Source: a virus (Duplodnaviria > Caudoviricetes). Taken from it: a stretch of 64,000 bases of DNA. Positions 12,791 to 58,267 of the stretch are shown here, piece by piece. The DNA lies in the IMG/VR virus record IMGVR_UViG_3300035422_000089, positions 1 to 64,000 of that record; one strand, written 5' to 3'. Every line of letters begins with the position of its first letter. Positions within the stretch are counted from its first letter, which is position 1. The translations under genes and the position numbers were made by a program. Under the pieces are notes generated by a model. It saw nothing but the letters and a program-made list of their open reading frames with translations, was not told where the DNA came from and made no database searches.

Positions 12791-13105
12791 ATGGCAGATA
12801 TTATTAAATTTCAGCAGTACGTTAATGCAAAAGATGAAGAGAAAAGACGTATTAAACAGGTATCTTTATTGTCTACAAAGAGCAAGAATATTGAAGGATT
12901 ATTACATAATATTAGTAATAGTGTAGGATGTTCATTTGTAACAAAGCATTTTGGTGAAATGAATCAGATTGTAGAAAAAGAAAACATACTTGATCCTGCA
13001 ATGTTGGAGGTGATTATTAATTTTCTAAAGGATTATAATAGTAAGATTTGTGAACAGATTAAAGAATTGAGTGGCTATGATACGAAGGTAACTATATCGT
13101 ATTAA
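12791..13105 (+). CDS. Hypothetical protein
   Basis: GGAGG SD before ATG 12791. Confidence 0.6.
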   Translation: MADIIKFQQYVNAKDEEKRRIKQVSLLSTKSKNIEGLLHNISNSVGCSFVTKHFGEMNQIVEKENILDPAMLEVIINFLKDYNSKICEQIKELSGYDTKVTISY

Positions 13106-13152
13106 AAGCCGCATTTCAAAGGGAAAATTGAAGAGAAAAGGAGAAAAATATT

Positions 13153-19461: not shown

Positions 19462-19485
19462 TCTGCAATGAAAGAAACATTTCAA

Positions 19486-19630: not shown

Positions 19631-19677
19631 GAAAGGAGCAAAGAGGTTTCTGCGCAGGATAAATCATGATTTACTCC
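19631..19677 (+). promoter_or_regulatory. Methyltransferase leader, family 1 copy A
   Basis: GGAGCAAA-GAGGTTT-CTGCGCAG-GA-TAAATCATGATTTA-CTCC. Confidence 0.75.
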
Positions 19678-19690
19678 AAGTAGATAATTA

Positions 19691-20494
19691 ATGGCAAAAA
19701 TTGAAAATGATAAATATTATACGCCTATTGGACTGGCAAATTATTGTTGGGATAAGGTGCTTGATATAATAGGAGAGCAAAATATATCTGAAATTATTGA
19801 GCCAAGTTGCGGAGATGGAGCATTTTATCATCACCCAATAAAAATCCCGCATTTTGGATATGATATAGAACCACAATGTAACTTTAAAAATATAATAAAA
19901 GATGATTATTTGAAACAAGATATTACATATCTCTGTGGACGATTGGTTATCGGCAATCCTCCATATGGAAGATGTATGAATATGGCACAAAAGTTTTATA
20001 AGAAGTCTATTGAAATTGCAGATTATATAGCATTTATTCTTCCAATATCTCAATTAAATAATACTCGTTCAATGTATAAATTTGATTTGATTTATAGTGA
20101 AGATTTAGGCGTTCATCATTATACAGATAGGGATTTGCATTGTTGTTTTAATATTTATAAAAGACCCGAAAATGGTGAGCCAAACAAAAAAACAGTATCA
20201 AAATTGAAAGATATTTCAATTTATAGACAAGATAGCAAAGGGTATGACAATAAGGATTTTGATATCAGAATGTGTTATTGGGGAGATGGAACAGCTGGTA
20301 AAATTTTAAAAGATGAAGAACATTATTCTGCTGAATATAAAATTAAAGTAAATAATGTAGAGAAAAGAGAAGAAATTATTAATGTGCTGTCAACATTTGA
20401 TTGGAAATCATATTTGAATTGTATAGCTATGAGGAAAATTCAACAATTTCATATTATTGATGTATTGAAACAAACTATATGTGGCATTAGTTAG
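19691..20494 (+). CDS. Amino (N6A/N4C) DNA methyltransferase, gamma-type motif order
   Basis: IEPSCGDGAF (motif I) followed by IGNPPY (motif IV). Confidence 0.8.
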   Translation: MAKIENDKYYTPIGLANYCWDKVLDIIGEQNISEIIEPSCGDGAFYHHPIKIPHFGYDIEPQCNFKNIIKDDYLKQDITYLCGRLVIGNPPYGRCMNMAQKFYKKSIEIADYIAFILPISQLNNTRSMYKFDLIYSEDLGVHHYTDRDLHCCFNIYKRPENGEPNKKTVSKLKDISIYRQDSKGYDNKDFDIRMCYWGDGTAGKILKDEEHYSAEYKIKVNNVEKREEIINVLSTFDWKSYLNCIAMRKIQQFHIIDVLKQTICGIS

Positions 20495-20531
20495 ATATTA
20501 AATTAAATAATATACAAGATACAAAATAAAG

Positions 20532-20590
20532 AAAGGATACGAATGTTCACTAGTGAAGAAAGCTGCGCAGCTACTAAGTAATGGTGAACA
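20532..20590 (+). promoter_or_regulatory. Methyltransferase leader, family 2 copy F
   Basis: 57/59 identical to 31729..31787; palindromes TTCACTAGTGAA and AGCTGCGCAGCT; outer stem TGTTCAC/GTGAACA. Confidence 0.8.
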
Positions 20591-20593
20591 AAA

Positions 20594-21361
20594 ATTAAAG
20601 TATTAGAATTATTCGCAGGAACTTGTTGCTTATCAAACGGATTCAAAGCAAGAGGACATGAAACATATACGATTGATATTGATAAACAATTTGATGTTGA
20701 TTGGCATATGGATTGTAGCAAGATTACTACAAAGGATATTATTGAAAGATTTGGTGTACCAGATGTTATTTGGTTAGGAACTCCATGTCAAAGTTATAGT
20801 ATAGCAGCCATCTCACACCATAGAAGAAAAAATGAAGAATCTGGGAATTTAGATGGTGTAAGCAATTTTGCGAGATTCTGTGATGAAATGAATTGGCACT
20901 GCAGAAAAATAGTTGAGGAATTATTAGAGATTAACCCCAATTTAATTTATTTTTGGGAAAATCCAAGATCTGCTTTTAGAAAAATGGATTTTATTCAGGG
21001 GATACCAAGATATACGATTTGGTATTGTAAATATATGACAGAGTTTCCACCAGAACAAAGAAGAGCCAAGCCAACAGATTTATTTACAAATCATCCGAAC
21101 CCTAAGTTTTTACCTGAGTGTAAAAATGGTTCTCCTGACCACGCAGTTGCTAAACGCGGTATGGCAACAGGAACTCAAGGGATGAAAAATGCAAAAGAAA
21201 GAAGTACATATCCAAAACAATTGGTTGAACATATAGTTGATATTTGCGAGCAGTATTTACACGAAAAAGAATTATTTGATGAATGTAAATCTTGTAAAAA
21301 CAAATGGTCTTCTATGAAGTGTGATATGTGTGAAGACTTTGATATGTATAAAAGGCAATAA
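20594..21361 (+). CDS. dcm: C5-cytosine DNA methyltransferase, probable ATT start
   Basis: (I/M)KVLELFAG motif I from 20594, GTPCQSYS motif IV, WENP motif VI; in-frame TGA at 20585. Confidence 0.75.
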   Translation: MKVLELFAGTCCLSNGFKARGHETYTIDIDKQFDVDWHMDCSKITTKDIIERFGVPDVIWLGTPCQSYSIAAISHHRRKNEESGNLDGVSNFARFCDEMNWHCRKIVEELLEINPNLIYFWENPRSAFRKMDFIQGIPRYTIWYCKYMTEFPPEQRRAKPTDLFTNHPNPKFLPECKNGSPDHAVAKRGMATGTQGMKNAKERSTYPKQLVEHIVDICEQYLHEKELFDECKSCKNKWSSMKCDMCEDFDMYKRQ

Positions 21362-21383
21362 TTATATAGAGAATTATTAAAAC

Positions 21384-21432
21384 GAAAGGAGTAAGAGGTT
21401 TGCTGGCCAGCATTAAAGATTGTCTTTACTCC
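21384..21432 (+). promoter_or_regulatory. Methyltransferase leader, family 1 copy B
   Basis: GGAGTAA-GAGGTT-TGCTGGCCAGCA-T-TAAAGATTGTCTTTA-CTCC. Confidence 0.75.
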
Positions 21433-21441
21433 AAAATGTAA

Positions 21442-22734
21442 TTGAGAAGAGAAAAAGAATTAAGAAATTGGGAACTGGTAAATTTCTGTGAATTTGATAA
21501 GTACGCAATTAAAAGCTACTGTGCAATTCATGGTGTAGACGAGAGTTTAAACCTTGGTGATATTACTAAGGTTAATGAAACAAAATTAGAAGATTTTAAT
21601 ATGATGACATGGGGATTTCCATGTACCGATATTTCCGTAGCCGGAAAGCAAAAAGGATTTTTAGACGAAGATGGTAACAAAACAAGAAGTGGCATGTATT
21701 ATGAAGGAATTCGTATTCTTAGACATAAGAAACCAGCATTATCAATTATTGAAAATGTAAAGAATTTAACAAGTAAGCGATTTAAAAAAGAATTTGAAAC
21801 AGTTTTATCGGACTTAGATGAAGCAGGATATAACTCATATTGGAAAGTTTTGAATGCGAAAGACTTTGGGATCCCTCAAAATCGTGAAAGAGTATTTATT
21901 ATATCAATTCGTAAAGATTTGGATAATGGCAGATTTACATTTCCTGAAGGTTTTGATAATGGAATCCGTTTGAAAGATATTTTGGAAGATGAGGTAGACG
22001 AAAAGTATTATATTTCTGATGATAAAGTGCAGAGATTTTTAACAAATCTAAATACTAATACTTCTTTACTATATGATCCGTGTCAGGTAAAAAGAGAAGG
22101 TAAATCAAGGGAATATAATGATTACTGTCCAACTCTAACTTCAAGAGATTACAAAGATTCCAGATTAGTAAATGAAAATGTTGTTAAACAAGTAGGTAAT
22201 ATTTCTGATTGTAATGGGAATTGGAAGAATCCACAAGTGGGGAGAATTTATGATCCTGATGGTTGTTCACCGACATTAAATACTTGTGGCAAAGGTAGCC
22301 ATGAACCTAAGATTGTTCAGGTTGGTAATGTAAATCCATCTGGTAAAGGTATGAATGGTAATGTATTTTCAGAAGATGGACTAGCACCAACTTTAACAAC
22401 AAATAAAGGTGAAGGAAATAAAATTTTAACAGGTATTAGAATCCGCAAACTAACGCCAAAAAAAACTTTCAGGCTTATGGGATTTTCTGATTCAGCATAT
22501 GACGCTGCAAGCAAAGTTGTTAGTAACAGCCAGCTTTATAAACAATCAGGGAATTCAATAGTAGTAGATATTTTATATTACATATTAGTTGAGTTATATA
22601 AGGCAATGCCATATCTGTTTGATGATTTGAAACTGAGCAGTTTCTTCTCAGGTATTGGTGCATTTGAGGCTAGTTTGGACAGATTGTATGAAAGCATCAA
22701 TACAGGAAATTTTACCAAACCACAAGTGGAGTAA
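21442..22734 (+). CDS. dcm: Circularly permuted, probably multispecific C5-cytosine DNA methyltransferase
   Basis: Order II (VNFCEFDKYA), III (LGDIT), IV (GFPCTD), VI (IENVK), VIII (PQNRER), variable region with 3 PTL modules, IX, X (LYKQSGNSIVV), then motif I (FFSGIGAFE) at the C-terminus. Confidence 0.85.
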   Translation: MRREKELRNWELVNFCEFDKYAIKSYCAIHGVDESLNLGDITKVNETKLEDFNMMTWGFPCTDISVAGKQKGFLDEDGNKTRSGMYYEGIRILRHKKPALSIIENVKNLTSKRFKKEFETVLSDLDEAGYNSYWKVLNAKDFGIPQNRERVFIISIRKDLDNGRFTFPEGFDNGIRLKDILEDEVDEKYYISDDKVQRFLTNLNTNTSLLYDPCQVKREGKSREYNDYCPTLTSRDYKDSRLVNENVVKQVGNISDCNGNWKNPQVGRIYDPDGCSPTLNTCGKGSHEPKIVQVGNVNPSGKGMNGNVFSEDGLAPTLTTNKGEGNKILTGIRIRKLTPKKTFRLMGFSDSAYDAASKVVSNSQLYKQSGNSIVVDILYYILVELYKAMPYLFDDLKLSSFFSGIGAFEASLDRLYESINTGNFTKPQVE

Positions 22735-22748
22735 ATTCTGCTTGTGGT
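22707..22748 (+). other. -1 ribosomal frameshift signal 1 (A_AAT_TTT plus hairpin)
   Basis: Heptamer 22707-13 in dcm frame; 5-nt spacer; 13-bp stem 22719-31/22736-48; TAA stop in the loop. Confidence 0.75.
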
Positions 22749-23051
22749 GAATATAAACCAGTTTTATTGGGTGGTATTGGAGAAATTAATTTTGGTAAAC
22801 AATATCGCCAAGGTAATCGTGTATATGATTCTAATGCAATAGCAATGTGTTTAACAGCACAACCATTAGGTAACGCTGGAGGATATAGTTATCTGTATGC
22901 TGTTGGAGCCGCTATGCGTGGCAGATATAATTCTGATGGTAAAACTGAACAACAGATAGAAGTAAGGGATGACGAGTTATCTAATGCAATTACAACGGTA
23001 TGGAAAGATAGTTTGGTTGTAGAAAATTTTCAGAAACCGCCAATGAGTTGA
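22713..23051 (+). CDS. -1 frame extension of dcm with two TRD-like modules (track ORF 22767..23051)
   Basis: QGNRVYDSNAIAMCLTAQ and ELSNAITTV resemble C5-MTase variable-region repeats; no SD before TTG 22767; frame open back through the slippery site. Confidence 0.7.
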   Translation, partial: YQTTSGVNSACGEYKPVLLGGIGEINFGKQYRQGNRVYDSNAIAMCLTAQPLGNAGGYSYLYAVGAAMRGRYNSDGKTEQQIEVRDDELSNAITTVWKDSLVVENFQKPPMS

Positions 23052-23065
23052 TATTCGTTGGCGGT
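23024..23065 (+). other. -1 ribosomal frameshift signal 2 (A_AAT_TTT plus hairpin)
   Basis: Heptamer 23024-30; 5-nt spacer; 13-bp stem 23036-48/23053-65; TGA stop in the loop. Confidence 0.75.
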
Positions 23066-23233
23066 ATAGAAAGTAAAAAGTGGTTGGATAATGGCAAATA
23101 TTTATCAAGAAACTATAAACAAGGGTATCGAGTATATGATTCAGATGGTATTGCATGTGCTTTAACAGCACAAGGAACAGGAGGATTGGGTGGGTATTCA
23201 GGATTGTATCTTGTTAGAAAAAAGAAGTATTAA
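23030..23233 (+). CDS. Second -1 frame extension with one TRD-like module (track ORF 23048..23233)
   Basis: QGYRVYDSDGIACALTAQGTGGLGGYSGLY is a paralog of the preceding module. Confidence 0.7.
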   Translation, partial: SETANELIFVGGIESKKWLDNGKYLSRNYKQGYRVYDSDGIACALTAQGTGGLGGYSGLYLVRKKKY

Positions 23234-23274
23234 AACCCACGTTTCAAGTAGAAAAAGAAAAGGAGAAAAACGAT

Positions 23275-23580
23275 ATGGAAATCATGAAAGTAAAAAATTA
23301 TAAGGTATTTGCAGAGACATTAAAAAAGAAAACTGGATGTGAAGCCACTATCAAGATTATGAATAGTAAAGATCACTATCATTTTCAGTTGAATAAAGAT
23401 GGTATTTCTCTTGGAGTATTATGTCTTGATCAAGGAGAAGCGTCTTTTGCTCCGTTTGTGTCACTTGATACGGCAAAAGATGATCAGTATATCAATGTAA
23501 AGTATATGCCAATGCTTGAAGATTTTATAGGTGTTCTAAAGGTATTTGATGAAATGTTTGTTTGTGAAGAAGAAGTATAG
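23275..23580 (+). CDS. Hypothetical protein
   Basis: ORF with AAGGAG SD. Confidence 0.65.
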   Translation: MEIMKVKNYKVFAETLKKKTGCEATIKIMNSKDHYHFQLNKDGISLGVLCLDQGEASFAPFVSLDTAKDDQYINVKYMPMLEDFIGVLKVFDEMFVCEEEV

Positions 23581-23609
23581 CTTTGAAATCTGCGATTTAT
23601 CGGAGGGTA

Positions 23610-23900
23610 ATGAAGTTGAAAGAATGTAGGTTTTGTAAAGATAGAACAAAATGCGAATATGCCATGAACGATTATCCTGGCTCTGACAATCTTTGGAAAG
23701 CAGAGAAATATTGTGAGAAAATTCAAAAATCAAATGTAGAAACAGTTAGTGAAAATGATAGCAAAGCATTTAAAGAGAAAGTAGAAAAATATCTTTCGCA
23801 AGGATATAAAATCTCTTCAACAAATTGCGGTTATGCTGGTGAAGTTGGTGGTAATGTATATGATTGTGAATACTGGATGGCGATTTTGATTAAGGAGTAG
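23610..23900 (+). CDS. Hypothetical protein
   Basis: GGAGG SD before ATG 23610. Confidence 0.6.
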   Translation: MKLKECRFCKDRTKCEYAMNDYPGSDNLWKAEKYCEKIQKSNVETVSENDSKAFKEKVEKYLSQGYKISSTNCGYAGEVGGNVYDCEYWMAILIKE

Positions 23901-23911
23901 GATGTGAATAA

Positions 23912-24348
23912 ATGCGTAGAAGATTAATAGGAAATATTTGTACTGGACTTGGTAATCCATCACCAGTAATTTTTGACAACGAATACACAGATAATAAAAG
24001 GTTTAATGAGACTGTAAAACTATTTTTTGAAGATGCACTAAATTCATTAAATGATGAAACTATTCATGATATTGGAGGTTTCGATTTCAAAATAGAGTTA
24101 GAAGATAACAGTTTTAGGATTTTATTTGGTATTGAACCATCATATATGTATAATCCGTATATCTGTTATTCTGTTATTGCTTTGATAGCGAAAAAGAGAA
24201 AAGCTATATACATAAGGGACAGGCATTTGGATATTATGGTGCTAATATCAAAATAAAATCGAAGAAGAGTTATAGGAGATGTGGTAAAGAATTTAGAGAA
24301 TGTATAAATAGGCATTATGAAAATTTGATGAGGTGTTTAAGTGAATAA
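23912..24348 (+). pseudogene. Hypothetical gene frameshifted by an 8-bp tandem duplication
   Basis: TCTGTTAT is repeated at 24162-69 and 24170-77; removing one copy gives a single frame to TAA at about 24348. Confidence 0.6.
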
Positions 24349-24568
24349 TGGAATATTTGCAAAATATACGGGGATTCCAATAATAGTTGTTCCTGATAGT
24401 AAAAAGCAAAATAGGACACATAAGAAAAAGAGAATAAATAAGAAGTGGGCTAAAAGATATGGATACACAACATATAATTCCATTGAAGATGAAAAGGTGA
24501 TTATGATGAATGGAAGCATGTATGTAAATCCGAGGGCTTATTATAAGTTGAAATCTATTGAATTGTAG
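24341..24568 (+). CDS. Hypothetical basic protein
   Basis: GAGGTG SD; RTHKKKRINKKWAKRYG. Confidence 0.6.
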   Translation: MNNGIFAKYTGIPIIVVPDSKKQNRTHKKKRINKKWAKRYGYTTYNSIEDEKVIMMNGSMYVNPRAYYKLKSIEL

Positions 24569-24950
24569 ATTTAGAAATTCATTCTGTGTGGAGGTAGGTA
24601 AGGTGACTAGAAAAGAGGAATTAGAAGCTGTAGAAGTGGAATTATACGAAAAAATAACTAAGGTTAAGAAAGAAAAGGAAGAAATTAGGCAAAAGGAATT
24701 AGCTGAGAAAAAGAGAAATGTAGCAAAGCATATTCAATATTTAAGAGATAATAAAGATATTATATTGCCTCTTTTAGAACATTCAAGAAAAAACTGTAGT
24801 GATGATAATTGCTGTAATGGATATATAACATCTGATGGATATGCTAGATGCAATAAATGTTTCTTAATAGAGATTTTGAATGGCGAATGGGGAGAAGGAG
24901 ATTTTGAAGTAACTTTTGACGTTCATATTTCATGCACAGAAGTCATTTAA
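24558..24950 (+). CDS. Hypothetical protein
   Basis: ORF; start probably GTG near 24603. Confidence 0.6.
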   Translation: MNCRFRNSFCVEVGKVTRKEELEAVEVELYEKITKVKKEKEEIRQKELAEKKRNVAKHIQYLRDNKDIILPLLEHSRKNCSDDNCCNGYITSDGYARCNKCFLIEILNGEWGEGDFEVTFDVHISCTEVI

Positions 24951-24982
24951 ACTTGCATTTCATAGGAGGAGAAAAAGAAGTT

Positions 24983-25342
24983 ATGAGCATGGAAAGTCAT
25001 TATTACGTTATAGCTGGTTATGATTTGACTGGCAACGAAACAGATAAATTTAAAGATTGGAAGTGGTCGGATGATGGAGAAGATTATATTTGCAACCAGT
25101 GCAAAGGCAAGATTCAATTTTTCGATGATCCGATGAGTGGTTTACATTTATATTTTGGATATGTTTTGGCTTCTGGTAATGAGTATAGTTTTGATACAGA
25201 AATGTTTGATGTGTCTGATATTGAAAAATGTTCTGGTAAGGTGAAAGCAGAATTGGTAAAACTTCAAGAACTGGGAGTGATTACAAAAAATCCACATTTT
25301 AAACCTGTGTTTAAGATTATTGTATTTGAAGAATGTAGATAG
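24983..25342 (+). CDS. Hypothetical protein
   Basis: GGAGG SD upstream of ATG 24983. Confidence 0.65.
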   Translation: MSMESHYYVIAGYDLTGNETDKFKDWKWSDDGEDYICNQCKGKIQFFDDPMSGLHLYFGYVLASGNEYSFDTEMFDVSDIEKCSGKVKAELVKLQELGVITKNPHFKPVFKIIVFEECR

Positions 25343-25349
25343 AGGGTAG

Positions 25350-25868
25350 GTGATTCAAATAACACATAATTACATAAATCTTACAAATGGCGTTGAAGCC
25401 ATTCCAATGTTGAAATTTTGGAATGAGGATTACAGATTTATTCGTATTCAGTCAACAATCTGTGAACAGAAATTATGGAACAGACTCATTCAGGATTTGG
25501 ACTATGATTTTTTGATGAATTTAGCACTTGGACATAAGTGTGTTGTGTATGATTTCGGGGCGAGAAAGCCGGTTCCTAGAGCAGTATATCAGGGATTAGA
25601 ATTTGTGAAATATGTTCTGAATCGCAGGTGGCTGGATCAGGAATATATCACAAATGTAAATAGAAGTAAAAATCAAGAGAGAAAGAATAATTGTAATGAT
25701 TATTTCAATAAGTGTTATTTGAACTTAGAAGATAGAACAAAAAAGAAACTGGATTATTTCTTACCATATGTAATCACAAAAGAAATAAAATTGGAATGTG
25801 TTACTGATTGTACGCAGCATGATAATGATAAAGAATTTTATAGAGAAATATTGAAACAGGTGAGTTAA
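25350..25868 (+). CDS. Hypothetical protein
   Basis: GTG start with GAGGG SD. Confidence 0.7.
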   Translation: MIQITHNYINLTNGVEAIPMLKFWNEDYRFIRIQSTICEQKLWNRLIQDLDYDFLMNLALGHKCVVYDFGARKPVPRAVYQGLEFVKYVLNRRWLDQEYITNVNRSKNQERKNNCNDYFNKCYLNLEDRTKKKLDYFLPYVITKEIKLECVTDCTQHDNDKEFYREILKQVS

Positions 25869-25889
25869 ATTTGGAAGGAGATACTGATT

Positions 25890-26558
25890 ATGAGTAAAGC
25901 GAAAAGATATAAAGGTCTGAAATTTAATTATAGAGTCAAAGGACAAAACAAAGTCTTTATGGATAAATATTTAACCATAGAAGATTTTCTTAAAACTCAA
26001 TTTCCTAAAAATAATAATCCGGTATCTCCTTCATATGATACAGAAATATTCAATATAAATTGGAACTCGCATGAAGTTAGTATCAATAAAGATGCCAAAA
26101 CTCTTTCTGATTTGATAGAAATTTTATCTGGCGAATGTTTTATCAGTAGCACAGATATTAGATTGACTAAATCCACATTGGAGAGAAAATCTGTTCATTA
26201 TATTGAAGATGTAAGAGAAACAGTAAAAGATGTTTTATTTGAGAAACTTAAAAAAGATGCAAAAGTAAAATTAGATGGTGACATCATAAAGGGTAATAGC
26301 CAAAGGTATCAGTTATTTTTTACAAAAGGTACAAAATGTGTCTGTTGTGGAATTGAGGGAAAATATTTTGCAAAAGAGAAGAAAATAAAAGATAAATCGT
26401 ACCATTTGAATTTGTATGGTATTGATAATAGCGGAAAAGAAGTCTTAATTACAAAAGATCACATAATTCCAAAATCAAAAGGTGGGAAAGATGAATTAGA
26501 AAATTATCAAACAATGTGTGTTAGATGTAATGAAAGAAAAGGTAATAAAACAGAATAA
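25890..26558 (+). CDS. HNH endonuclease
   Basis: CVCCG...TKDHIIPKSKGG...ENYQTMCVRCNERKG. Confidence 0.85.
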   Translation: MSKAKRYKGLKFNYRVKGQNKVFMDKYLTIEDFLKTQFPKNNNPVSPSYDTEIFNINWNSHEVSINKDAKTLSDLIEILSGECFISSTDIRLTKSTLERKSVHYIEDVRETVKDVLFEKLKKDAKVKLDGDIIKGNSQRYQLFFTKGTKCVCCGIEGKYFAKEKKIKDKSYHLNLYGIDNSGKEVLITKDHIIPKSKGGKDELENYQTMCVRCNERKGNKTE

Positions 26559-26562
26559 TTAA

Positions 26563-26631
26563 TAAAGAAAGGATAAAATCAGAAGTTCCTATAGGTGAAA
26601 AGTGCGCACAGCTTATGACGGTAAGCGAGGA
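26563..26631 (+). promoter_or_regulatory. Double-palindrome leader (copy H) upstream of the RNA repair gene
   Basis: AAAGAAAGGATA head as in family 2; CCTATAGG 26588-95; GTGCGCAC 26602-09; hairpin GCTTA/TAAGC. Confidence 0.5.
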
Positions 26632-28830
26632 ATGAGAATTTTACTTTTATTAAGAGGATCTGCCGGATGTGGGAAATCTACATGGATTGAGAAAAATGGA
26701 TTAAAACCATATACATTGTCGGCTGATGATATAAGGCTTCTGTGTCAGAGTCCTATTATGCAAGTAGATGGCGCTGAAGGCATCAGCCAGGTAAACGATA
26801 ATGTCACATGGAAGACTTTATTTAATTTGTTAGAAGTCAGAATGCAGAAGGGTGAATTTACTGTAATTGACGCTACAAATTCTAAGACTTCTGAAATGAA
26901 CAGATATAAGGAAATGTGCAATACATATAGATACAGGATTTATTGTGTTGATTTTACGGATATTTCTATTGATGAAGTTAAGAGAAGGAATGCAAATAGA
27001 GAAGTATTAAAGAGAGTCCCTGAAGAAGTGATTGATAAGATGTATTCAAGATTTGCAACTCAGAAAATACCATCAGGTATCAAAGTTATCAAACCTGATG
27101 AATTAGATACTATCTGGATGAGAATGATCGATCTGTCTGAATACAAAAAGATTCATCATATTGGAGATATTCATGGATGTAATACAGTTTTGCAGAAGTA
27201 CTTATCAGATAATGGTAGTATGAAAGATGATGAGTTTTATATTTTTACAGGTGATTATATTGATAGAGGACTTGAAAATGCCGATGTTGTAAAATTTCTC
27301 ATTTCCATTAAGGATAAGAAAAATGTTCTTATGTTGGAGGGGAATCATGAGAGATGGTTGTGGCTATATGCAAATGGATGTACAGGTAAATCAAAAGAAT
27401 TTGAATTAATTACAAAACCAGCTCTGGAAGAAGCGAGAATTGATAAGAAGGATATAAGGCAGCTTTATAGAAGATTTGGTCAGTGTGCTTATTATAAATA
27501 TGGCGATAATGTTTATTTGGTTACTCATGCTGGACTTAGTACGCTTCCAAAGAATTTGTCATTTGTAGCAACGGATCAGATGATTAGAGGTGTTGGTGGT
27601 TACAATGATTTTGAGAAAATCGCAGAAACATTTGTCAACACTACACCAGACAATGTTTATCAGATTCATGGACACAGAAATACAAAGAGATTAGATACAA
27701 AGGTAAATGACAGGGTATTCAATTTGGAAGGTCGTGTGGAATTTGGTGGAGAATTAAGATGTGTACAGGTTGATAAAAATGGTATTCACACAATCGAAAT
27801 TCAAAATGAAGTATTCAAGACACCGGAAATGCAGAGTGAACAGACTGTTACAAGTAGTTCAGTTACAGACACGATTATCTCTTTAAGGGCTAATAGATAT
27901 ATTCAGGAAAAGAAATTTGGCAATATCTCTTCCTTTAATTTTACTGAAAAGGCATTTTATGACAAGGTTTGGGATGAACAGACCACAAAATCAAGAGGGT
28001 TATATCTTGATACCCTAAAAGGAAAAGTAGTTGCAAGGGCATATGATAAGTTCTTTAATATCAACGAAAGACCAGAAACGAAGTTTGATATGCTGCAATA
28101 CAAACTGCAATTTCCTGTAACAGCTTATGTTAAAGAAAATGGTTTCTTGGGCATTGTAAGTTACAACGAATATGAAGATGATTTGTTGATTGCAAGTAAG
28201 TCTACTCTTGATAGCCAGTTTGCACAGTGGTTTAGAGAAATGTTATATGAAAAGATTTCTGCTGACAATATTCAGGAAATGAAGAAATATATTAAAGAGC
28301 ATAATGTTTCATTTGTATTTGAGTGTGTTGACATGAAGAATGACCCACATATTATCGAATATCCAAACAGTGAATTATTCTTACTTGATATTGTTCAGAA
28401 TGATATGAACTTTTCTAAATATGAATATGACACAATGGTTGATGTTGCTAATCAGTTTGGAATTACAACGAAAGAAAAGGCATTTGAGATTGCAACATGG
28501 CAGGAGTTCTTTGATTGGTACTATGACATTTTGGAAGAAGATTATGAGTATGATGGACGCAAGATTGAAGGATTTGTCATTGAGGACAGTGTAGGCTACA
28601 TGACAAAACTGAAACTGACATACTACAATTTCTGGAAGTTTATGAGAAGTATTTCACATGAAGCGATCAGGAATGGATATATCAGGAAGACATCGGCTTT
28701 AACTACTCCAACAGCAAATGAATATTATGCTTGGGTTAGAAAATTGCACGATGTAGAAGATAAAGATAGTATTCCGAGAGATATTTGTACGCTGAGAAGA
28801 CTGTTTTATAAGGACAAGGAGAAAAATTGA
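26632..28830 (+). CDS. Trifunctional RNA repair enzyme: polynucleotide kinase, metallophosphoesterase, Rnl1-type RNA ligase
   Basis: GSAGCGKS P-loop; GDIHG, GDYIDRG, GNHE; ligase motif I KENG and EGFV. ATG 26632 has GAGGA SD (track uses GTG 26602). Confidence 0.88.
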   Translation: MRILLLLRGSAGCGKSTWIEKNGLKPYTLSADDIRLLCQSPIMQVDGAEGISQVNDNVTWKTLFNLLEVRMQKGEFTVIDATNSKTSEMNRYKEMCNTYRYRIYCVDFTDISIDEVKRRNANREVLKRVPEEVIDKMYSRFATQKIPSGIKVIKPDELDTIWMRMIDLSEYKKIHHIGDIHGCNTVLQKYLSDNGSMKDDEFYIFTGDYIDRGLENADVVKFLISIKDKKNVLMLEGNHERWLWLYANGCTGKSKEFELITKPALEEARIDKKDIRQLYRRFGQCAYYKYGDNVYLVTHAGLSTLPKNLSFVATDQMIRGVGGYNDFEKIAETFVNTTPDNVYQIHGHRNTKRLDTKVNDRVFNLEGRVEFGGELRCVQVDKNGIHTIEIQNEVFKTPEMQSEQTVTSSSVTDTIISLRANRYIQEKKFGNISSFNFTEKAFYDKVWDEQTTKSRGLYLDTLKGKVVARAYDKFFNINERPETKFDMLQYKLQFPVTAYVKENGFLGIVSYNEYEDDLLIASKSTLDSQFAQWFREMLYEKISADNIQEMKKYIKEHNVSFVFECVDMKNDPHIIEYPNSELFLLDIVQNDMNFSKYEYDTMVDVANQFGITTKEKAFEIATWQEFFDWYYDILEEDYEYDGRKIEGFVIEDSVGYMTKLKLTYYNFWKFMRSISHEAIRNGYIRKTSALTTPTANEYYAWVRKLHDVEDKDSIPRDICTLRRLFYKDKEKN

Positions 28831-28840
28831 TAAAAATATA

Positions 28841-28882
28841 CCATATATAGTAGTTTGCTGTATTTGAAATTGCTATATATGG
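28841..28882. repeat. 42-bp inverted repeat, copy 1
   Basis: CCATATATAG-TAGTTT-N10-AAATTG-CTATATATGG. Confidence 0.8.
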
Positions 28883-28919
28883 TACAGACATGAAATCGAG
28901 ATTTCAAAGGTGGATAGTC

Positions 28920-29099
28920 ATGAAGAGCAATGTTGACTATATGAAGAAAATTGTAAAAGAGATGAAAAGTAAAGTTAATTTGTCTATTGTTAGCACGGAC
29001 TACGCAAAAGGATATTGTTATGCCTTACTAGATTATTTAATAGATAATGATGATGTCTATGATGACTTTGCCAGAACAATAGATGATGTATTCAATTAA
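28920..29099 (+). CDS. Hypothetical protein
   Basis: AAGGTGG SD before ATG 28920. Confidence 0.55.
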   Translation: MKSNVDYMKKIVKEMKSKVNLSIVSTDYAKGYCYALLDYLIDNDDVYDDFARTIDDVFN

Positions 29100-29174
29100 C
29101 GGATAAGATAAAAAATCTGTTTCATCGAAAGTTTGGAGGTGATATAAATAATTACAAGAGAAGTAGATATTGAA

Positions 29175-29393
29175 ATGAATCCACGAGAATTAGCTGAAGA
29201 ATTTTGGAACATGGACTCAGAACAGCAAGCGAAGTTCTTTAATGAATTAGCAAATATTATTGAAGAAAATCAAGGTAGAGGTGTAATGCAATTAGATTAC
29301 ATATCATTTGAGCCTTCATTGTATCCATATGGAGCAAGACTAATCAGTATGTTGGCTGAACGAGTAAAAGAAGGAAATAGAAAATCTAAATAA
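29175..29393 (+). CDS. Hypothetical protein
   Basis: ORF; frame is open further upstream to a strong GGAGGTGA SD. Confidence 0.6.
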   Translation: MNPRELAEEFWNMDSEQQAKFFNELANIIEENQGRGVMQLDYISFEPSLYPYGARLISMLAERVKEGNRKSK

Positions 29394-29396
29394 CAC

Positions 29397-29441
29397 GGAA
29401 AGGAATAAAGGTGCTGCAGCCGTGAGATGATCATACCTTTC
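29397..29441 (+). promoter_or_regulatory. Methyltransferase leader, variant E
   Basis: GAAAGG...AAAGGT-GCTGCAGC-CGTGAG-ATGATCAT-ACCTTTC. Confidence 0.65.
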
Positions 29442-29452
29442 TGGGTGAAGAA

Positions 29453-30253
29453 GTGAGTAATAATGTTAAACTATACTATGGAGACTGTCTAAATGTAATG
29501 GATAACATTACGGATAAATCCATTGATATGATACTGTGTGATTTACCATATGGGTGTACAGCTAGAAATAAATGGGATGTTATTATTCCGTTTGAGCAAT
29601 TATGGAAGCAATATCAAAGAATTATAAAGGATAATGGAGCAATTGTATTATTTGGGAAACAACCCTTTACTTCCATGATGATTATGAGTAATCCAAATAT
29701 GTACAAGTATAATCTTGTATGGAAAAAGAATTTAAAGACAGGAAATTTAAATGCGAGAAAAATGCCAATGGGTGCATTTGAGGACATTATGGTTTTTTAT
29801 AAAAAGAGTCCAGTATACAATCCTCAGCAAATTCCAAGAACATATCAAGTTCCAAGTGGTAACAAATTTAATTCTAAGACAACCAATTATGGGAAACAAA
29901 AAGAATTATATATTGATAGGCAAAATGAATGGTTAATGCCGGATGATGTTATTGATTATGAGGATGGGATATCTTTAGATGCGTTAGAATTAGAAAATGA
30001 AATGTTATACATAAAATGTGTGCACAATTCGTCAGGTAAATTACATCCAACTCAAAAACCTGTAGAATTATTGGAATGGTTAATAAAAACATATACCAAT
30101 GAAGGAGATATCGTTTTAGATAATGCAATGGGATCCGGATCTACTGGTGTTGCATGTATGAATGTAAATAGAAAATTTATAGGAATTGAATTGGAAGAAA
30201 AGTATTATCACATAGCATCTGAAAGATTATATTGCTGTAAGGATGGCGTCTGA
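29453..30253 (+). CDS. Beta-class N4C/N6A DNA methyltransferase
   Basis: CDLPYG, HPTQKP, VLDNAMGSGSTG. Confidence 0.9.
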   Translation: MSNNVKLYYGDCLNVMDNITDKSIDMILCDLPYGCTARNKWDVIIPFEQLWKQYQRIIKDNGAIVLFGKQPFTSMMIMSNPNMYKYNLVWKKNLKTGNLNARKMPMGAFEDIMVFYKKSPVYNPQQIPRTYQVPSGNKFNSKTTNYGKQKELYIDRQNEWLMPDDVIDYEDGISLDALELENEMLYIKCVHNSSGKLHPTQKPVELLEWLIKTYTNEGDIVLDNAMGSGSTGVACMNVNRKFIGIELEEKYYHIASERLYCCKDGV

Positions 30254-31020
30254 TATGAAGGATATCGAATTATGGCAAGGTGATTGTCTTGAATTGATGA
30301 AGAATATTCCTGATAAATCTGTGGATATGGTTTTGACGGATTTACCATATGGAACGACTCAGGCGAAGTGGGATACGATAATTCCGTTTGAACCAATGTG
30401 GAGTCAAATAAACAGAGTTATTAAGGACAATGGTGCAATACTTTTATTTAGCAGTCAACCATTTACTTCAGCTTTAATCATGAGCAATCCAAAGATGTTT
30501 AAATATGAATGGATATGGCATAAAACACACCCAAAAGGACATTTGAATGCTAAGAAAATGCCAATGAGGGCACATGAAAATATAGAAGTATTCTATAAGA
30601 AACCGCCTACATATAATCCACAAATGACTCATGGACATAAAAGGAAAGTAGCAAAAACAAATTATATCAGAGAAGCAGATGGAGATAGCTGTTATGGCAG
30701 AGAAGTAAGAAATACTTCCTATAATAGCACAGATAGATATCCTCTTGATATTCAAATCTTTAGTAATGCAGATCAATCCAATAAAATCCACAATACCCAA
30801 AAACCAGTAGAGCTATATAGATATTTTATGAGAACATATACGAATGAGGGGGGAGACAGTGCTTGACTTCTCTGCTGGAAGTATGACATGTGCGATTGCT
30901 GGTATTGATGAAAATAGAAAAGTTATTTGTATTGAGAAAGATGAAAAAATATTTGGACTGGGGAAGAATAGAGTGATAAAGCATCAAAAAGAGAAAGGAA
31001 CGGATTTATGTATAAAGTAG
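30243..31020 (+). pseudogene. Beta-class DNA methyltransferase with +1 frameshift in G6 tract (30848-53)
   Basis: TDLPYG and HNTQKP; motif I (VLDFSAGS) continues in the +1 frame to TAG 31018-20. Confidence 0.8.
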
Positions 31021-31211
31021 ATTACTATACATTCGCAAGATGTGGTGATGATTCTATAGGGAATATCCTGCAATATTCTGATACATGGTATACAGAGAAT
31101 TTTATAGAAGATATACCGAAGGCACTAGCGCATGTTGTTGATGCAAGAAAAGGAGCTGGAAAGTATATTCCAGTAATCAAAAATATAGAAAATATTAAAG
31201 GTCATTTGTAA
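31008..31211 (+). CDS. Hypothetical protein
   Basis: AAAGGA SD. Confidence 0.55.
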   Translation: MYKVDYYTFARCGDDSIGNILQYSDTWYTENFIEDIPKALAHVVDARKGAGKYIPVIKNIENIKGHL

Positions 31212-31417
31212 TTTAGTAAATATAGGGGAAATGGCTTATGTTTGAACCTTTTAGATGTGAAGATTGTATTTATGGTGAATATCTTCCACAAGATTGCGAA
31301 TGGGATTGCTCATTAGGATGTTGGTCGAGTAAAGAGTGTGAAGATAATTATGAAGATGATGAAAGAATTTGATTTTTAGAAACAGAATGAAAAGCCAATT
31401 TCAAAGCAAGAAAATAA

Positions 31418-31439
31418 GACAGTCCAGAAACTGCCTTAC
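31418..31439 (-). terminator. Intrinsic terminator of the minus-strand peptide gene
   Basis: Minus strand AAGGCAGT-TTCTGG-ACTGTCTT followed by ATTTTCTT; the G-U pair works only on the minus strand. Confidence 0.6.
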
Positions 31440-31453
31440 TCTCTTAATGAACA

Positions 31454-31618
31454 CTACTTCTTATGTTTCTTTTTTTTTGACTTTGTGTTAATCTCAAATT
31501 TTTTACATTTAATATGTAAATTCTTGAGCACAAAGCCACTTACTAACACCAAAATTGTTATTGATAAAACAATACAAGTAGGTGTCTGAAAAAGTTGAAT
31601 AATATATAAAATGTTCAT
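31454..31618 (-). CDS. 54-aa membrane peptide, type I toxin-like (not in track)
   Basis: MNILYIIQLFQTPTCIVLSITILVLVSGFVLKNLHIKCKKFEINTKSKKKKHKK; GGAGG SD inside a 10-bp hairpin 31620-43. Confidence 0.7.
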   Translation of the reverse strand: MNILYIIQLFQTPTCIVLSITILVLVSGFVLKNLHIKCKKFEINTKSKKKKHKK

Positions 31619-31657
31619 ATATTCCTCCATTTCTGGAGGAATAGGGAAATATAAGAT

Positions 31658-31686
31658 ATTGTAGCATATAAAATTAGAATAGTAAA
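31658..31686 (-). promoter_or_regulatory. SigmaA promoter for the peptide gene
   Basis: TTTACT, 17 nt, TACAAT with extended TG. Confidence 0.6.
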
Positions 31687-31728
31687 TAGGAACAATAAAA
31701 ATTTTGTTTTAAGTAAGAAAAAATAGTA

Positions 31729-31787
31729 AAAGGATACGAATGTTCACTAGTGAGTAAAGCTGCGCAGCTACTAAGTAATGGTGAACA
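31729..31787 (+). promoter_or_regulatory. Methyltransferase leader, family 2 copy G
   Basis: 57/59 identical to 20532..20590. Confidence 0.8.
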
Positions 31788-31788
31788 G

Positions 31789-32328
31789 TTGGGATTAAAC
31801 ATAGGATATTTAACATCTGATAAAGAAGATAATGAACTTTATTCACCTTATTACATAGTAGATCATATTGTTAAGTATTTGCCAAAAGACAAGATTATTT
31901 GGTGCCCGTTTGATTGTGAATGGTCAGCATTTTATCAGAGGTTAAAAGAATTAGGATATAAAGTAGCAAGAAGTTCTCTACAAGAAGGTCAAGACTTTTT
32001 CGAGTTTGAACCTGATGAGTGGGATATTATTGTAAGCAATCCACCATTTTCATTAAAGGATAAAGTGTTGGAAAGATTGTATTCATTTAATAAACCATTT
32101 GCAATTTTATTACCATTAAATTCCTTGCAAGGTAAAACAAGGTACAAATATTTCAAACAAGGTATTCAATTATTAAGTTTTGATGCAAGAGTTTGTTATC
32201 ATGACAAGGGGCATATGGAGAATGTAGTAAAAGGAAGTCCATTTGCAACAGCTTATTTTTGTAGAGATTTGTTGCCAAAAGATTTGATTATAGAAAAGTT
32301 ACTTGAATATGAAAGAAATTTAAAATAA
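31789..32328 (+). CDS. Small N6-adenine DNA methyltransferase
   Basis: IWCPFD and IVSNPPF; TTG 31789 preferred because track start 31750 lies within the repeated leader. Confidence 0.8.
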   Translation: MGLNIGYLTSDKEDNELYSPYYIVDHIVKYLPKDKIIWCPFDCEWSAFYQRLKELGYKVARSSLQEGQDFFEFEPDEWDIIVSNPPFSLKDKVLERLYSFNKPFAILLPLNSLQGKTRYKYFKQGIQLLSFDARVCYHDKGHMENVVKGSPFATAYFCRDLLPKDLIIEKLLEYERNLK

Positions 32329-32332
32329 TAAA

Positions 32333-32378
32333 CAGGAGGAAATGAGGTTTCTGCGCAGAATAAATCCGGATTTACTCC
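32333..32378 (+). promoter_or_regulatory. Methyltransferase leader, family 1 copy C
   Basis: GGAGGAAATGAGGT-TTCTGCGCAGAA-TAAATCCGGATTTA-CTCC. Confidence 0.8.
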
Positions 32379-32387
32379 TAATAAAGA

Positions 32388-33269
32388 ATGGAATATCAAA
32401 AGAAAATTAAGTGTGAACTTTACAGAGACAGTATGCAAAATTATAAAAAGTACGCAATTCCACCTGCTCAGTTAATCATAGCAGATGTTCCCTATAATGT
32501 GGGTAACAATTTTTATGGTTCAAATCCGATGTGGTACAACGGAGGAGACAACAAAAAAGGTGAAAGTAAATTAGCTGGTAAAGCAGCTTTCAATTCTGAT
32601 TTTAATTTTAATCTATATGAATATTTTCATTTTTGTTCCAAGATGCTTAAAAAAGATGATACTAGGCCTGTTCCGAGAGGACGCAGTAGTGACTCACCTT
32701 GTATGATTGTATTTTGTTCATTTGAACAAATTCAGACTCTTATAAAAGCAGCAGAGAAGCATGGATTTGTTCATTACATTCCGCTGATCTTTTGTAAGAA
32801 TTATAGTCCACAGGTGCTTAAAGCGAATATGCGTGTTGTAGGAGCCGCTGAGTATGCACTTCTGTTATACAGAGATAAATTGCCTAAATTCAGAAATGGA
32901 CTTCAAATTGACGAGAATGGCAAGAATATTCCAGGAACAGGACATATGATCTTTAACTGGTTTGATGGTGGCGATGAGGATGAGTGGGGAAGAACTTATC
33001 ATAGCAACAGTACATATATGATGTGGGAAAAAGATAAGGGGAAAGAGATACCTAAGATTCATCCAGCTCAGAAGCCAGTAGCAGTTCTGAAACGATTGAT
33101 TGAAATATTTACTGATCCTGGTGATGTAGTTATTGATCCGTGTGCAGGTTCTGGTACAACACTAAGAGCAGCTTATGAACTTGGCAGAAGTGCTTTCGGT
33201 TTTGAAATTGACCGTAATTTCTACCAGAGAGCAAAAGATGAAATGTTGAATTTTGCAAAAGAAGAGTAG
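32388..33269 (+). CDS. Beta-class N4C/N6A DNA methyltransferase
   Basis: ADVPYN, HPAQKP, VIDPCAGSGTT. Confidence 0.88.
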   Translation: MEYQKKIKCELYRDSMQNYKKYAIPPAQLIIADVPYNVGNNFYGSNPMWYNGGDNKKGESKLAGKAAFNSDFNFNLYEYFHFCSKMLKKDDTRPVPRGRSSDSPCMIVFCSFEQIQTLIKAAEKHGFVHYIPLIFCKNYSPQVLKANMRVVGAAEYALLLYRDKLPKFRNGLQIDENGKNIPGTGHMIFNWFDGGDEDEWGRTYHSNSTYMMWEKDKGKEIPKIHPAQKPVAVLKRLIEIFTDPGDVVIDPCAGSGTTLRAAYELGRSAFGFEIDRNFYQRAKDEMLNFAKEE

Positions 33270-33300
33270 ATACATATAGATTTAAAACATCGGTTTCAAA

Positions 33301-33460
33301 GGGAATCATCAACTCATAATTGATGGTTTCAATTCGGGAGATAGTTGCCTTACCAATTCTAACGACTCCCTAAAAACGGTAGGAATGGCGTTTACGACAG
33401 GCGGTAGTACAGATCCTTCCTTGTACGATAACAAGGGCAAACTACACTGAAGAATAGAAA
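33301..33460 (+). ncRNA. Candidate structured RNA (anticodon-like hairpin plus possible pseudoknot)
   Basis: 11-bp stem 33302-12/33320-30 with loop CTCATAA; GGGAG/CTCCC stem whose loop CTTACC can pair with downstream GGTAGG; CCTTGT/ACAAGG. Confidence 0.35.
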
Positions 33461-33474
33461 AGGAGAAAAATACT

Positions 33475-58236: not shown

Positions 58237-58267
58237 GGCAATAAAACGCTCGTTTTAAGACCTATAA

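Follow-up and report, generated by a model that had tools for sequence, protein, structure and literature searches.

A candidate portable leader predicted to mask the ribosome-binding site of exchangeable methyltransferase and RNA-repair genes in gut phages

T4-type phages carry PeSL cassettes, short conserved regulatory motifs that are repeated within a genome and flank non-essential genes in variable regions. PeSLs sit where related phages have gained, lost or replaced genes, and consist of a sigma-70-like early promoter and a terminator stem-loop (Arbiol et al. 2010, PMC2839356; Comeau et al. 2014, PMC4122927). Here we describe a repeat in a 64,000-nucleotide (nt) stretch of a Caudoviricetes phage (positions 1 to 64,000 of IMG/VR record IMGVR_UViG_3300035422_000089; the whole stretch is called the window below), in which a near-identical element stands before a C5-type and an N6-adenine DNA methyltransferase gene 11 kb apart. 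At the level of translation, Shine-Dalgarno (SD) sequences are sequestered by an upstream complementary sequence in the MS2 maturation gene, and in lambda N and T7 0.3, where a long-range helix limits initiation. In Bacillus, polypurine elements known as STAB-SD reportedly stabilise the 5' ends of mRNAs, and the stabiliser of phage SP82 is said to include such a polypurine. The window repeat is the core of a leader of ~65 nt, and on balance we think it probable that this leader acts in cis, is portable, and limits translation of exchangeable counter-defence genes by masking their ribosome-binding site.

The repeated leader and its predicted fold

The near-identity of 20532-20590 and 31729-31787, reported in a preliminary description of this DNA, is confirmed by direct reading, with mismatches at 2 of 59 positions (GAAGAA versus GAGTAA), and in a repeat search of the window the match grows to 68 nt with 93% identity (20523-20590 and 31720-31787). 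A 56-nt pattern has two exact matches in the window, none in 100 shuffles, and again just two in the 73.7-kb contig. Both of the palindromes described are present, TCACTAGTGA at 20547-20556 and 31744-31753 and AGCTGCGCAGCT at 20561-20572 and 31758-31769, and the genes 3' of the two copies are indeed unrelated (PF00145 and phrog_757 for one, phrog_799 for the other). From 5' to 3', the leader begins with GAAAGGA, which resembles an SD; then come GUUCAC as the 5' strand, a hairpin capped by GCGC, and G-GUGAAC as the 3' strand, in which the real SD lies. A weak start codon follows 4-8 nt past that strand (UUG at 31789, AUU at 20594). The parts of the two copies are as follows.

20531..20537, + strand: SD-like polypurine GAAAGGA, copy 1 (sequence; no conserved start codon after it)
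20544..20552, + strand: 5' strand of helix P1 (UGUUCACUA; conserved core GUUCAC at 20545-20550), the anti-SD (RNAfold; compensatory forms)
20547..20556, + strand: palindrome 1 (TCACTAGTGA), copy 1, made of the 5' strand and an adjacent SD-core copy (six perfectly compensated forms across loci)
20561..20572, + strand: hairpin P3, AGCU-GCGC-AGCU, the GC-rich palindrome, copy 1 (fold; stem covariation)
20582..20590, + strand: 3' strand of P1 (UGGUGAACA) with the SD GGUGA at 20583-20587, copy 1 (RNAfold)
20594..21361, + strand: C5-type DNA methyltransferase-like gene, 255 aa, AUU start (PF00145, phrog_757)
31728..31734, + strand: SD-like polypurine AAAAGGA, copy 2 (sequence)
31741..31749, + strand: 5' strand of P1, copy 2 (RNAfold)
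31744..31753, + strand: palindrome 1, copy 2 (sequence)
31758..31769, + strand: hairpin P3, copy 2 (fold)
31779..31787, + strand: 3' strand of P1 with the SD GGUGA at 31780-31784, copy 2 (RNAfold)
31789..32328, + strand: N6-adenine DNA methyltransferase gene, 179 aa, UUG start (phrog_799; sub-threshold match to PF13651, EcoRI_methylase)

RNAfold predicts P1 as a 9-bp helix of 20544-20552 with 20582-20590 that covers GGUGA, pairing the SD strand with the GUUCAC ~35 nt upstream and enclosing the GCGC-capped hairpin. The two window copies fold at -13.5 and -16.4 kcal/mol (z-scores of -2.3 and -2.1), and the minimum-energy fold of every variant, ranging from -10.5 to -16.4 kcal/mol, has both P1 over the SD and P3. 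The proposed outer stem over the GGTGA SD is supported by a predicted helix and by compensatory changes within it. The same stem had been thought to compete with the first palindrome; with only 2 nt at the centre of that palindrome, the idea finds no thermodynamic support for monomeric RNA.

Across loci, P1 takes four fully Watson-Crick forms (GUUCAC/GUGAAC, GUUCCU/AGGAAC, GUUCUC/GAGAAC and AGUCUC/GAGACU), together with strands that form G-U pairs (AGGGAC, GUGAAU and AGGAAU) and a fifth form, GUCUC/GGGAC, in GenBank phage MT835469. The pairing was counted with a structure-aware script instead of on the alignment (A2), since in the divergent subfamily both MAFFT and alignment to the covariance model put the P1 3' strand in the wrong place, and formal counts on that alignment give covariation for P3 only. 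By this count 103 of 108 P1 cells are paired, against a shuffle mean of 88.7, and none of 5000 shuffles reaches 103. The stem of P3 covaries as AGCU/AGCU, AGU/ACU and GGU/ACC, with two pairs changing on both sides. At one locus, L182, the 5' strand of P1 is altered and the helix weakened, and at another, L091, the same 5' strand is accompanied by an adjusted 3' strand, a contrast that looks like compensation in progress. Compensatory changes, a fixed orientation and a fixed distance to the start codon together argue for a leader that functions in RNA.

The core UAAAG...UGCGCA is invariant across copies, and the sequence around it varies in a manner unlike that of a reading frame. The ATG of the leader (20543 in copy 1) is ATG, ACG, AAG or ATA depending on the copy, the mini-ORF (open reading frame) that it opens is 12 codons long in copy 1 but only 5 in copy 2, and the linker from the GC palindrome to GGTGA measures 3-10 nt and varies by non-multiples of 3. 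Because the ATG is not conserved, the linker shifts the frame and stops lie in frame, the repeat is non-coding. The preliminary description had named translation of the segment, as N-terminal sequence needed for activity, as a finding that would speak against a regulatory role. That the repeat is translated, as a leader peptide or an N-terminal extension, could be argued from copy 1, where ATG 20543 follows AAAGGA and opens a 12-codon ORF, and from copy 2, where the frame is open from GTG 31750 into the gene. However, the ATG is lost in more than half of the distinct copies, and orthologues of the N6 methyltransferase open with TTG-GCA-TTA-AAT at the residue matching TTG 31789, the orthologue in MT835469 opening with ATG-GCA-TTA-AAC (M-A-L-N-I-G) at exactly that position. 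As a general feature translation is refuted, and we give it next to no chance. A leader-peptide (uORF) attenuator was rejected, as neither start codon nor frame is conserved.

Several observations weigh against a leader that acts through its fold. The folding z-scores are modest (-0.6 to -2.3), most loci belong to phages that are near relatives, many of them from a single sample, such that the independent compensatory events in P1 are few (~4-5), and the patterns used for retrieval fixed AGCTGCGCAGCT and GGTGA, whose invariance is therefore partly by construction. Furthermore, the first palindrome is kept at L182 and L201 although P1 is weakened there, which the fold of monomeric RNA does not explain.

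Palindromes and weak start codons

The 5' strand of P1, the two bases that follow and the SD-core copy form a perfect 10-bp palindrome, which occurs in six compensated forms with 87 of 90 cells paired. Its central dinucleotide has changed from AT to TA twice, and from AT to CG in the family of leaders designated family 1; these double changes preserve the symmetry, and forms a single step away (TT, TG) are rare. Such conservation may point to selection acting on the duplex DNA or on dimeric RNA. Possible causes are correction of a quasipalindrome by template switching, a dimeric protein bound to duplex DNA, and an RNA dimer. A hairpin of the 5' strand with its palindromic neighbour does not appear in folds of growing prefixes, and a kinetic trap formed by that hairpin was rejected. 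Loop-loop or duplex pairing of family 1 with family 2 (the family of the window repeat) via CUGCGCAG was likewise rejected, as just 1 of 186 AT-rich loci has two copies.

Kinship with family 1, which the preliminary description had noted from a similar arrangement of two palindromes, is borne out by CTGCGCAG, which occurs four times in the contig, exclusively in two family-1 and two family-2 leaders (0.05 expected). One interpretation of the palindromes is that they are duplex-DNA operators for one or more dimeric regulators, similar to controller proteins, that time transcription of the cassettes. Perfect palindromes of 10-12 bp with no spacer, centre changes that keep the symmetry, and a CTGCGCAG common to both families are all in keeping with such sites. 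Yet the half-sites differ within one genome (TCAC, TCCT, TCTC, CTC) and are still self-complementary, which fits structure and not base-specific contacts; G-T 'wobble' variants are tolerated; and no controller-type gene was seen among the cassette neighbours scanned. Nor did a consensus scan find any enrichment of sigma-70-type promoter sites, with 63 sites against 78 in shuffles and none in the conserved core; inspection by eye alone suggested an AGAAT-like motif 20-45 nt upstream. Operators seem to us a rather unlikely explanation. A broader speculation, also unlikely, is that the leaders are a dedicated control code for counter-defence cassettes, in which the set of anti-SD, palindromic SD decoy and real SD, along with the invariant UAAAG..UGCGCA hairpin, would be recognised by one shared factor, from phage or host, or via an RNA dimer, switching expression on only when needed, with the palindromes doubling as integron-like sites of cassette exchange.

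The F2a leaders, the group to which the window repeat belongs, have weak starts: among the matches listed the start codon is TTG in 61 and ATT in 4, with no ATG, and lies 4-8 nt past GGTGA. The ATT instances concern the C5-type gene, whose frame has a TGA at 20585 and no ATG, GTG or TTG ahead of motif I (KVLELFAG), the sole near-cognate codon being ATT 20594, 6 nt past GGTGA. This ATT is kept in four contexts and two leader types, including G001/G006, a Lachnospiraceae metagenome-assembled genome and locus L043 with a diverged leader (positions in relatives: L030:1571; L157; L043, - strand, near 1690). The diverged leader of L043 has an in-frame TAA 9 nt upstream of the ATT, no A-run and no upstream start. 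Because ATT is conserved across leaders and the frame holds no other start codon, the C5-type gene appears to start at AUU, with no other start possible. Entry to the gene by +1 frameshifting at the A5 run was rejected, as L043, with neither run nor upstream start, keeps the ATT. The C5 homologue of Bacillus phage BC-VP starts MTKKKLKVLELFAG and has an ATG six codons further upstream.

Distribution, cargo and cassette borders

The database tabulation of downstream genes that the preliminary description had proposed in advance shows that the other copies do not precede random gene types. The F2a leader, searched for in IMG/VR with a looser pattern and counted among the matches listed, is found at at least 66 loci of related gut phages and prophages before seven kinds of gene. 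DNA methyltransferases of five families account for 56 of the 66, a PAPS-reductase-like protein for 5 and a 58-aa ORF for 5:

EcoRI-like N6 methyltransferase: at least 21 loci
D12 (Dam-like) methyltransferase: at least 13 loci
phrog_799 methyltransferase, 206 aa: at least 12 loci
phrog_799 methyltransferase, 217 aa: at least 6 loci
C5-type methyltransferase: at least 4 loci
PAPS-reductase-like protein: at least 5 loci
58-aa ORF: at least 5 loci

The loop tetranucleotide does not correlate with the enzyme downstream, one leader type serving several enzyme families. A sister subfamily, F2b, with more than 115 loci, has the same architecture in other letters (GUUCCU, UCCUAUAGGA, AGUGCGCACU, an extra hairpin and AGGAAC) and precedes only RNA ligase or RNA-repair genes, namely three types of RNA ligase (PF09414) and an RNA-repair fusion in the window. 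F2a and F2b together amount to about 180 loci of gut Firmicutes phages and prophages, and every F2-type leader retains GAAAGGA or AAAGGA at 7-13 nt 5' of the P1 5' strand, with GAAAGGA retained in all family-1 leaders as well. The other leaders of the window include the following.

19631..19690, + strand: family-1 leader before the methyltransferase-like gene 19691-20494; it has CUGCGCAG in common with family 2
26567..26634, + strand: third F2-type leader (F2b), with GAAAGGA, GUUCCU, CCUAUAGG, GUGCGCAC, a GCUUAU/GUAAGC hairpin and AGGAAU overlapping ATG 26632 (covariance model match, E 5.5e-7)
26632..28830, + strand: RNA-repair enzyme behind the F2b leader, a fusion of kinase, phosphoesterase and T4-type RNA ligase, 742 aa (Pfam AAA_33, Metallophos, RNA_lig_T4_1)
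32333..32387, + strand: family-1 leader before the N6_N4 methyltransferase gene 32388-33269; it marks the 3' limit of the cassette beginning at 31729
58266-58325: family-1-type leader with swapped loops (GGUAUACC, then UAAAUGCGCAUUUA), before a Dam-like methyltransferase gene with TTG start at 58326

An HNH endonuclease gene, 25890-26558, ends 9 nt ahead of the F2b leader. Family-1-type leaders in the window begin at 19631, 21383, 29396, 32333 and 58266, bringing the structured leaders to eight, seven before methyltransferases and one before the RNA-repair fusion. Seven of the eight methyltransferase genes in the window lie behind a leader; the remaining one, at 30243, overlaps the gene before it. 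The window has 13 GC-rich palindromes, and 7 fall inside structured leaders. F2-type leaders number one or two per near-complete relative of ~160 kb. The leader is a specialised element, not a general gene leader of the phage. Elsewhere in the window, a 54-nt direct repeat (22809-22862 and 23120-23173, 76% identity) after a 430-aa C5 enzyme encodes a C-terminal motif of C5 methyltransferases in two small ORFs, and a 200-nt non-coding stretch 3' of the last methyltransferase (33270-33474) resembles 13094-13125 (repeat family D19) at its start.

No Rfam family matches the element, at gathering scores or at E up to 10, and the leader family is new to Rfam and without a described relative. With no Rfam model matching, we draw no connection to the RNA motif named 'D12-methyl'. 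A strict pattern, CACTAGTG..CTGCGCAG, gave chance matches only in IMG/VR, because the relatives carry CATG, CTGG or CTTG centres. A nucleotide match to the leader was not found in GenBank phages; MT835469, an unannotated human faecal phage, surfaced through a protein search and carries, at L267:1440-1505, a variant consisting of AGUCUC, GAGG, GCUGCGCAGC, GGGAC and an ATG start before the orthologous N6 methyltransferase. These searches bear on the idea of a riboswitch for S-adenosylmethionine (SAM), S-adenosylhomocysteine (SAH) or another metabolite, to which a small SD-sequestering element with an invariant UAAAG..UGCGCA before SAM-dependent enzymes lends some appeal. But the Rfam search, including SAM-II, SAM-V, SAM/SAH, SAM-VI and others, returned nothing even at an E of 10, the downstream genes have no one shared metabolite, F2b serving ATP-dependent RNA ligases, and loops and linker vary in sequence and length; we regard a riboswitch as very improbable.

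The phage itself is of ~190 kb and 31% G+C, of which ~38% is covered, and nearly all the larger reading frames of the window are on one strand. The window stretch is present in contigs of public runs labelled mouse gut or mouse metagenome, from ~12 studies; relatives carry a provirus flag, and the contig has a tyrosine recombinase at 72.6 kb. The leader is also present in two metagenome-assembled genomes, one labelled Lachnospiraceae (mouse) and the other Bacilli (human gut); the hosts of leader-bearing phages and prophages are probably gut Firmicutes.

Most relatives share with the window just 20520-20596 or 31729-31787, and those with an orthologous N6 gene share 31729-32342, that is, the leader and the gene up to the next leader. 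One relative, a contig from an RNA library, lacks 20462-21380, the leader and C5 gene, and has further joints at 29452 and 31729, both of them leader edges. The RNA runs are available as assembled contigs only, and their coverage carries no expression information; breaks of such contigs at 20561 and 31758 were rejected as transcript ends, since they fall at the same position inside the repeat and are assembly breaks. At locus L053, homology with phages of unrelated flanks is confined to -46 to +55 around the leader and reaches 96% identity. In a relative from run X18 (window 29452-30267), the N6_N4 methyltransferase gene 29453-30253 is missing and the leader is joined to the next gene via 23 other letters. 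The proposal of a portable module for methyltransferase genes finds support as to portability, with homology blocks and indels ending at leader edges, and fails as to the restriction to methyltransferases, with F2b serving RNA ligases. Furthermore, since the N6 gene has a window-type leader here and the main type in its orthologues, leaders have been exchanged or homogenised independently of the genes.

The cassettes also have a distinct element at their borders, a 16-bp hairpin motif TRAAA-N6-TTTYA that is found at gene junctions and occurs 26 times in the window (expectation 3.7). Examples are:

19469-19484: TRAAA-N6-TTTYA copy
31696-31711: TRAAA-N6-TTTYA copy
58242-58257: TRAAA-N6-TTTYA copy

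One copy lies 9 nt ahead of leader copy 2, and a hairpin of this class at L053:4704-4767 is the 3' border of a variable methyltransferase slot.

The same observations could mean that the element matters mainly as DNA, a conserved linker for cassette swapping by homologous recombination or by a nuclease such as the neighbouring HNH enzyme, with any effect on expression secondary. Homology confined to the leader, indels ending at its edges, the mismatch of leader type between the N6 gene and its orthologues, the HNH gene next to the F2b leader and the DNA-like perfection of the palindromes all speak for a linker. A linker, however, needs no fixed orientation, no SD within a covarying helix, no G-U-tolerant changes and no fixed distance to a start codon. 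We hold it unlikely that the DNA role is the principal one, and it is compatible with a leader that acts in RNA.

Possible mode of action and described relatives

Under the leader-RNA interpretation, the folded leader, at -12 to -16 kcal/mol, would mask the ribosome-binding site and thereby set a low, uniform level of enzyme whatever gene follows. Methyltransferases are costly or dangerous in excess. P1 would probably be opened by ribosomes that load on the exposed upstream GAAAGGA, which may serve as a standby site or, in copies with the ATG, start a mini-ORF of 5-12 codons that runs through the 5' strand; alternatively, a trans-acting factor might recognise the UAAAG...UGCGCA core. By analogy with STAB-SD elements in Firmicutes, GAAAGGA may also stabilise the 5' end of the mRNA. 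In addition, the leader may supply homology for cassette exchange, because it is conserved while the flanks are not.

A different role in RNA would be that of a processing or stabilising site, modelled on the RNase III sites of T7 or of SP82 early genes, at which cleavage separates cistrons and frees the SD. In favour, a conserved hairpin with internal loops recurs between cistrons, it has a polypurine directly 5' of it, as is said of the SP82 stabiliser, and copy 1 lies within a run of co-oriented genes. Yet the stacked helices total just ~14-17 bp with large internal loops, and copy 2 is preceded by a gap of ~500 nt without a long ORF (31212-31728, with a T-run near 31470); because of this non-coding gap copy 2 probably heads its own transcript. 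We judge a processing site improbable.

Phage methyltransferases and RNA-repair enzymes are front-line counter-defence, and the control of their dose and exchange is little studied. Whichever cassette is inserted behind the leader would acquire a masked ribosome-binding site together with a weak start codon, and the leader also marks swap points. If this interpretation is correct, annotation gains an additional RNA motif, and the leader could flag counter-defence genes yet to be recognised, the PAPS-reductase-like gene and the 58-aa ORF being examples, and serve as a natural part for low-level expression in Firmicutes. Its perfect palindromy is a concrete puzzle on how such elements evolve or are recognised. 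As for the earlier suggestion of a regulatory module reused on incoming genes, the copies were found neither before random gene types nor as translated sequence, and that part stands; the cargo is broader than the methyltransferases it named.

Among described systems, C-protein operators also place paired palindromes upstream of genes in the sphere of DNA methylation. They were rejected, as there is no C gene among the scanned neighbours, a C-box consensus is lacking, and the two palindromes differ from one another and have covarying arms. Integron attC sites, the '59-base elements', are similarly structured elements of ~60 bp between cassettes whose structure is kept more than their sequence. 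These too were rejected: the order GTTCAC...GTGAAC inverts R''/R' (RYYYAAC first, GTTRRRY last), and the C at position 4 breaks GTTRRRY. Unlike attC, moreover, the leader lies upstream of each gene and contains its SD. An integron integrase was rejected as well, the sole tyrosine recombinase of the contig (at 72.6 kb, in the ~38% of the genome covered) scoring 38 bits against a TIGR02249 cut-off of 265.

Resemblance to STAB-SD lies in a GAAAGGA(GG) polypurine in a 5' untranslated region (UTR) without a start codon of its own, and is limited to the upstream 7 nt of the leader. With the leaders of MS2, lambda N and T7 0.3 it shares an upstream strand complementary to the SD, the SD lying inside a helix that compensatory change has kept. 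It differs from them in having no sequence relation, in being modular and common to unrelated genes, and in its second SD copy, palindromic with the anti-SD, and its UUG or AUU starts. Like the PeSLs, the leaders are repeated at mosaic junctions of variable regions. In contrast to PeSLs, no U-tract follows P1 or P3 and a window scan found no terminator-like site at the leaders; their core is an SD-masking 5' UTR, their likely hosts are Firmicutes and their cargo is limited to methyltransferases and RNA ligases, with the separate TRAAA-N6-TTTYA class of hairpin at the 3' border of the cassette. The closest known systems are thus the PeSLs for genome dynamics and the SD-masking leaders for mechanism.

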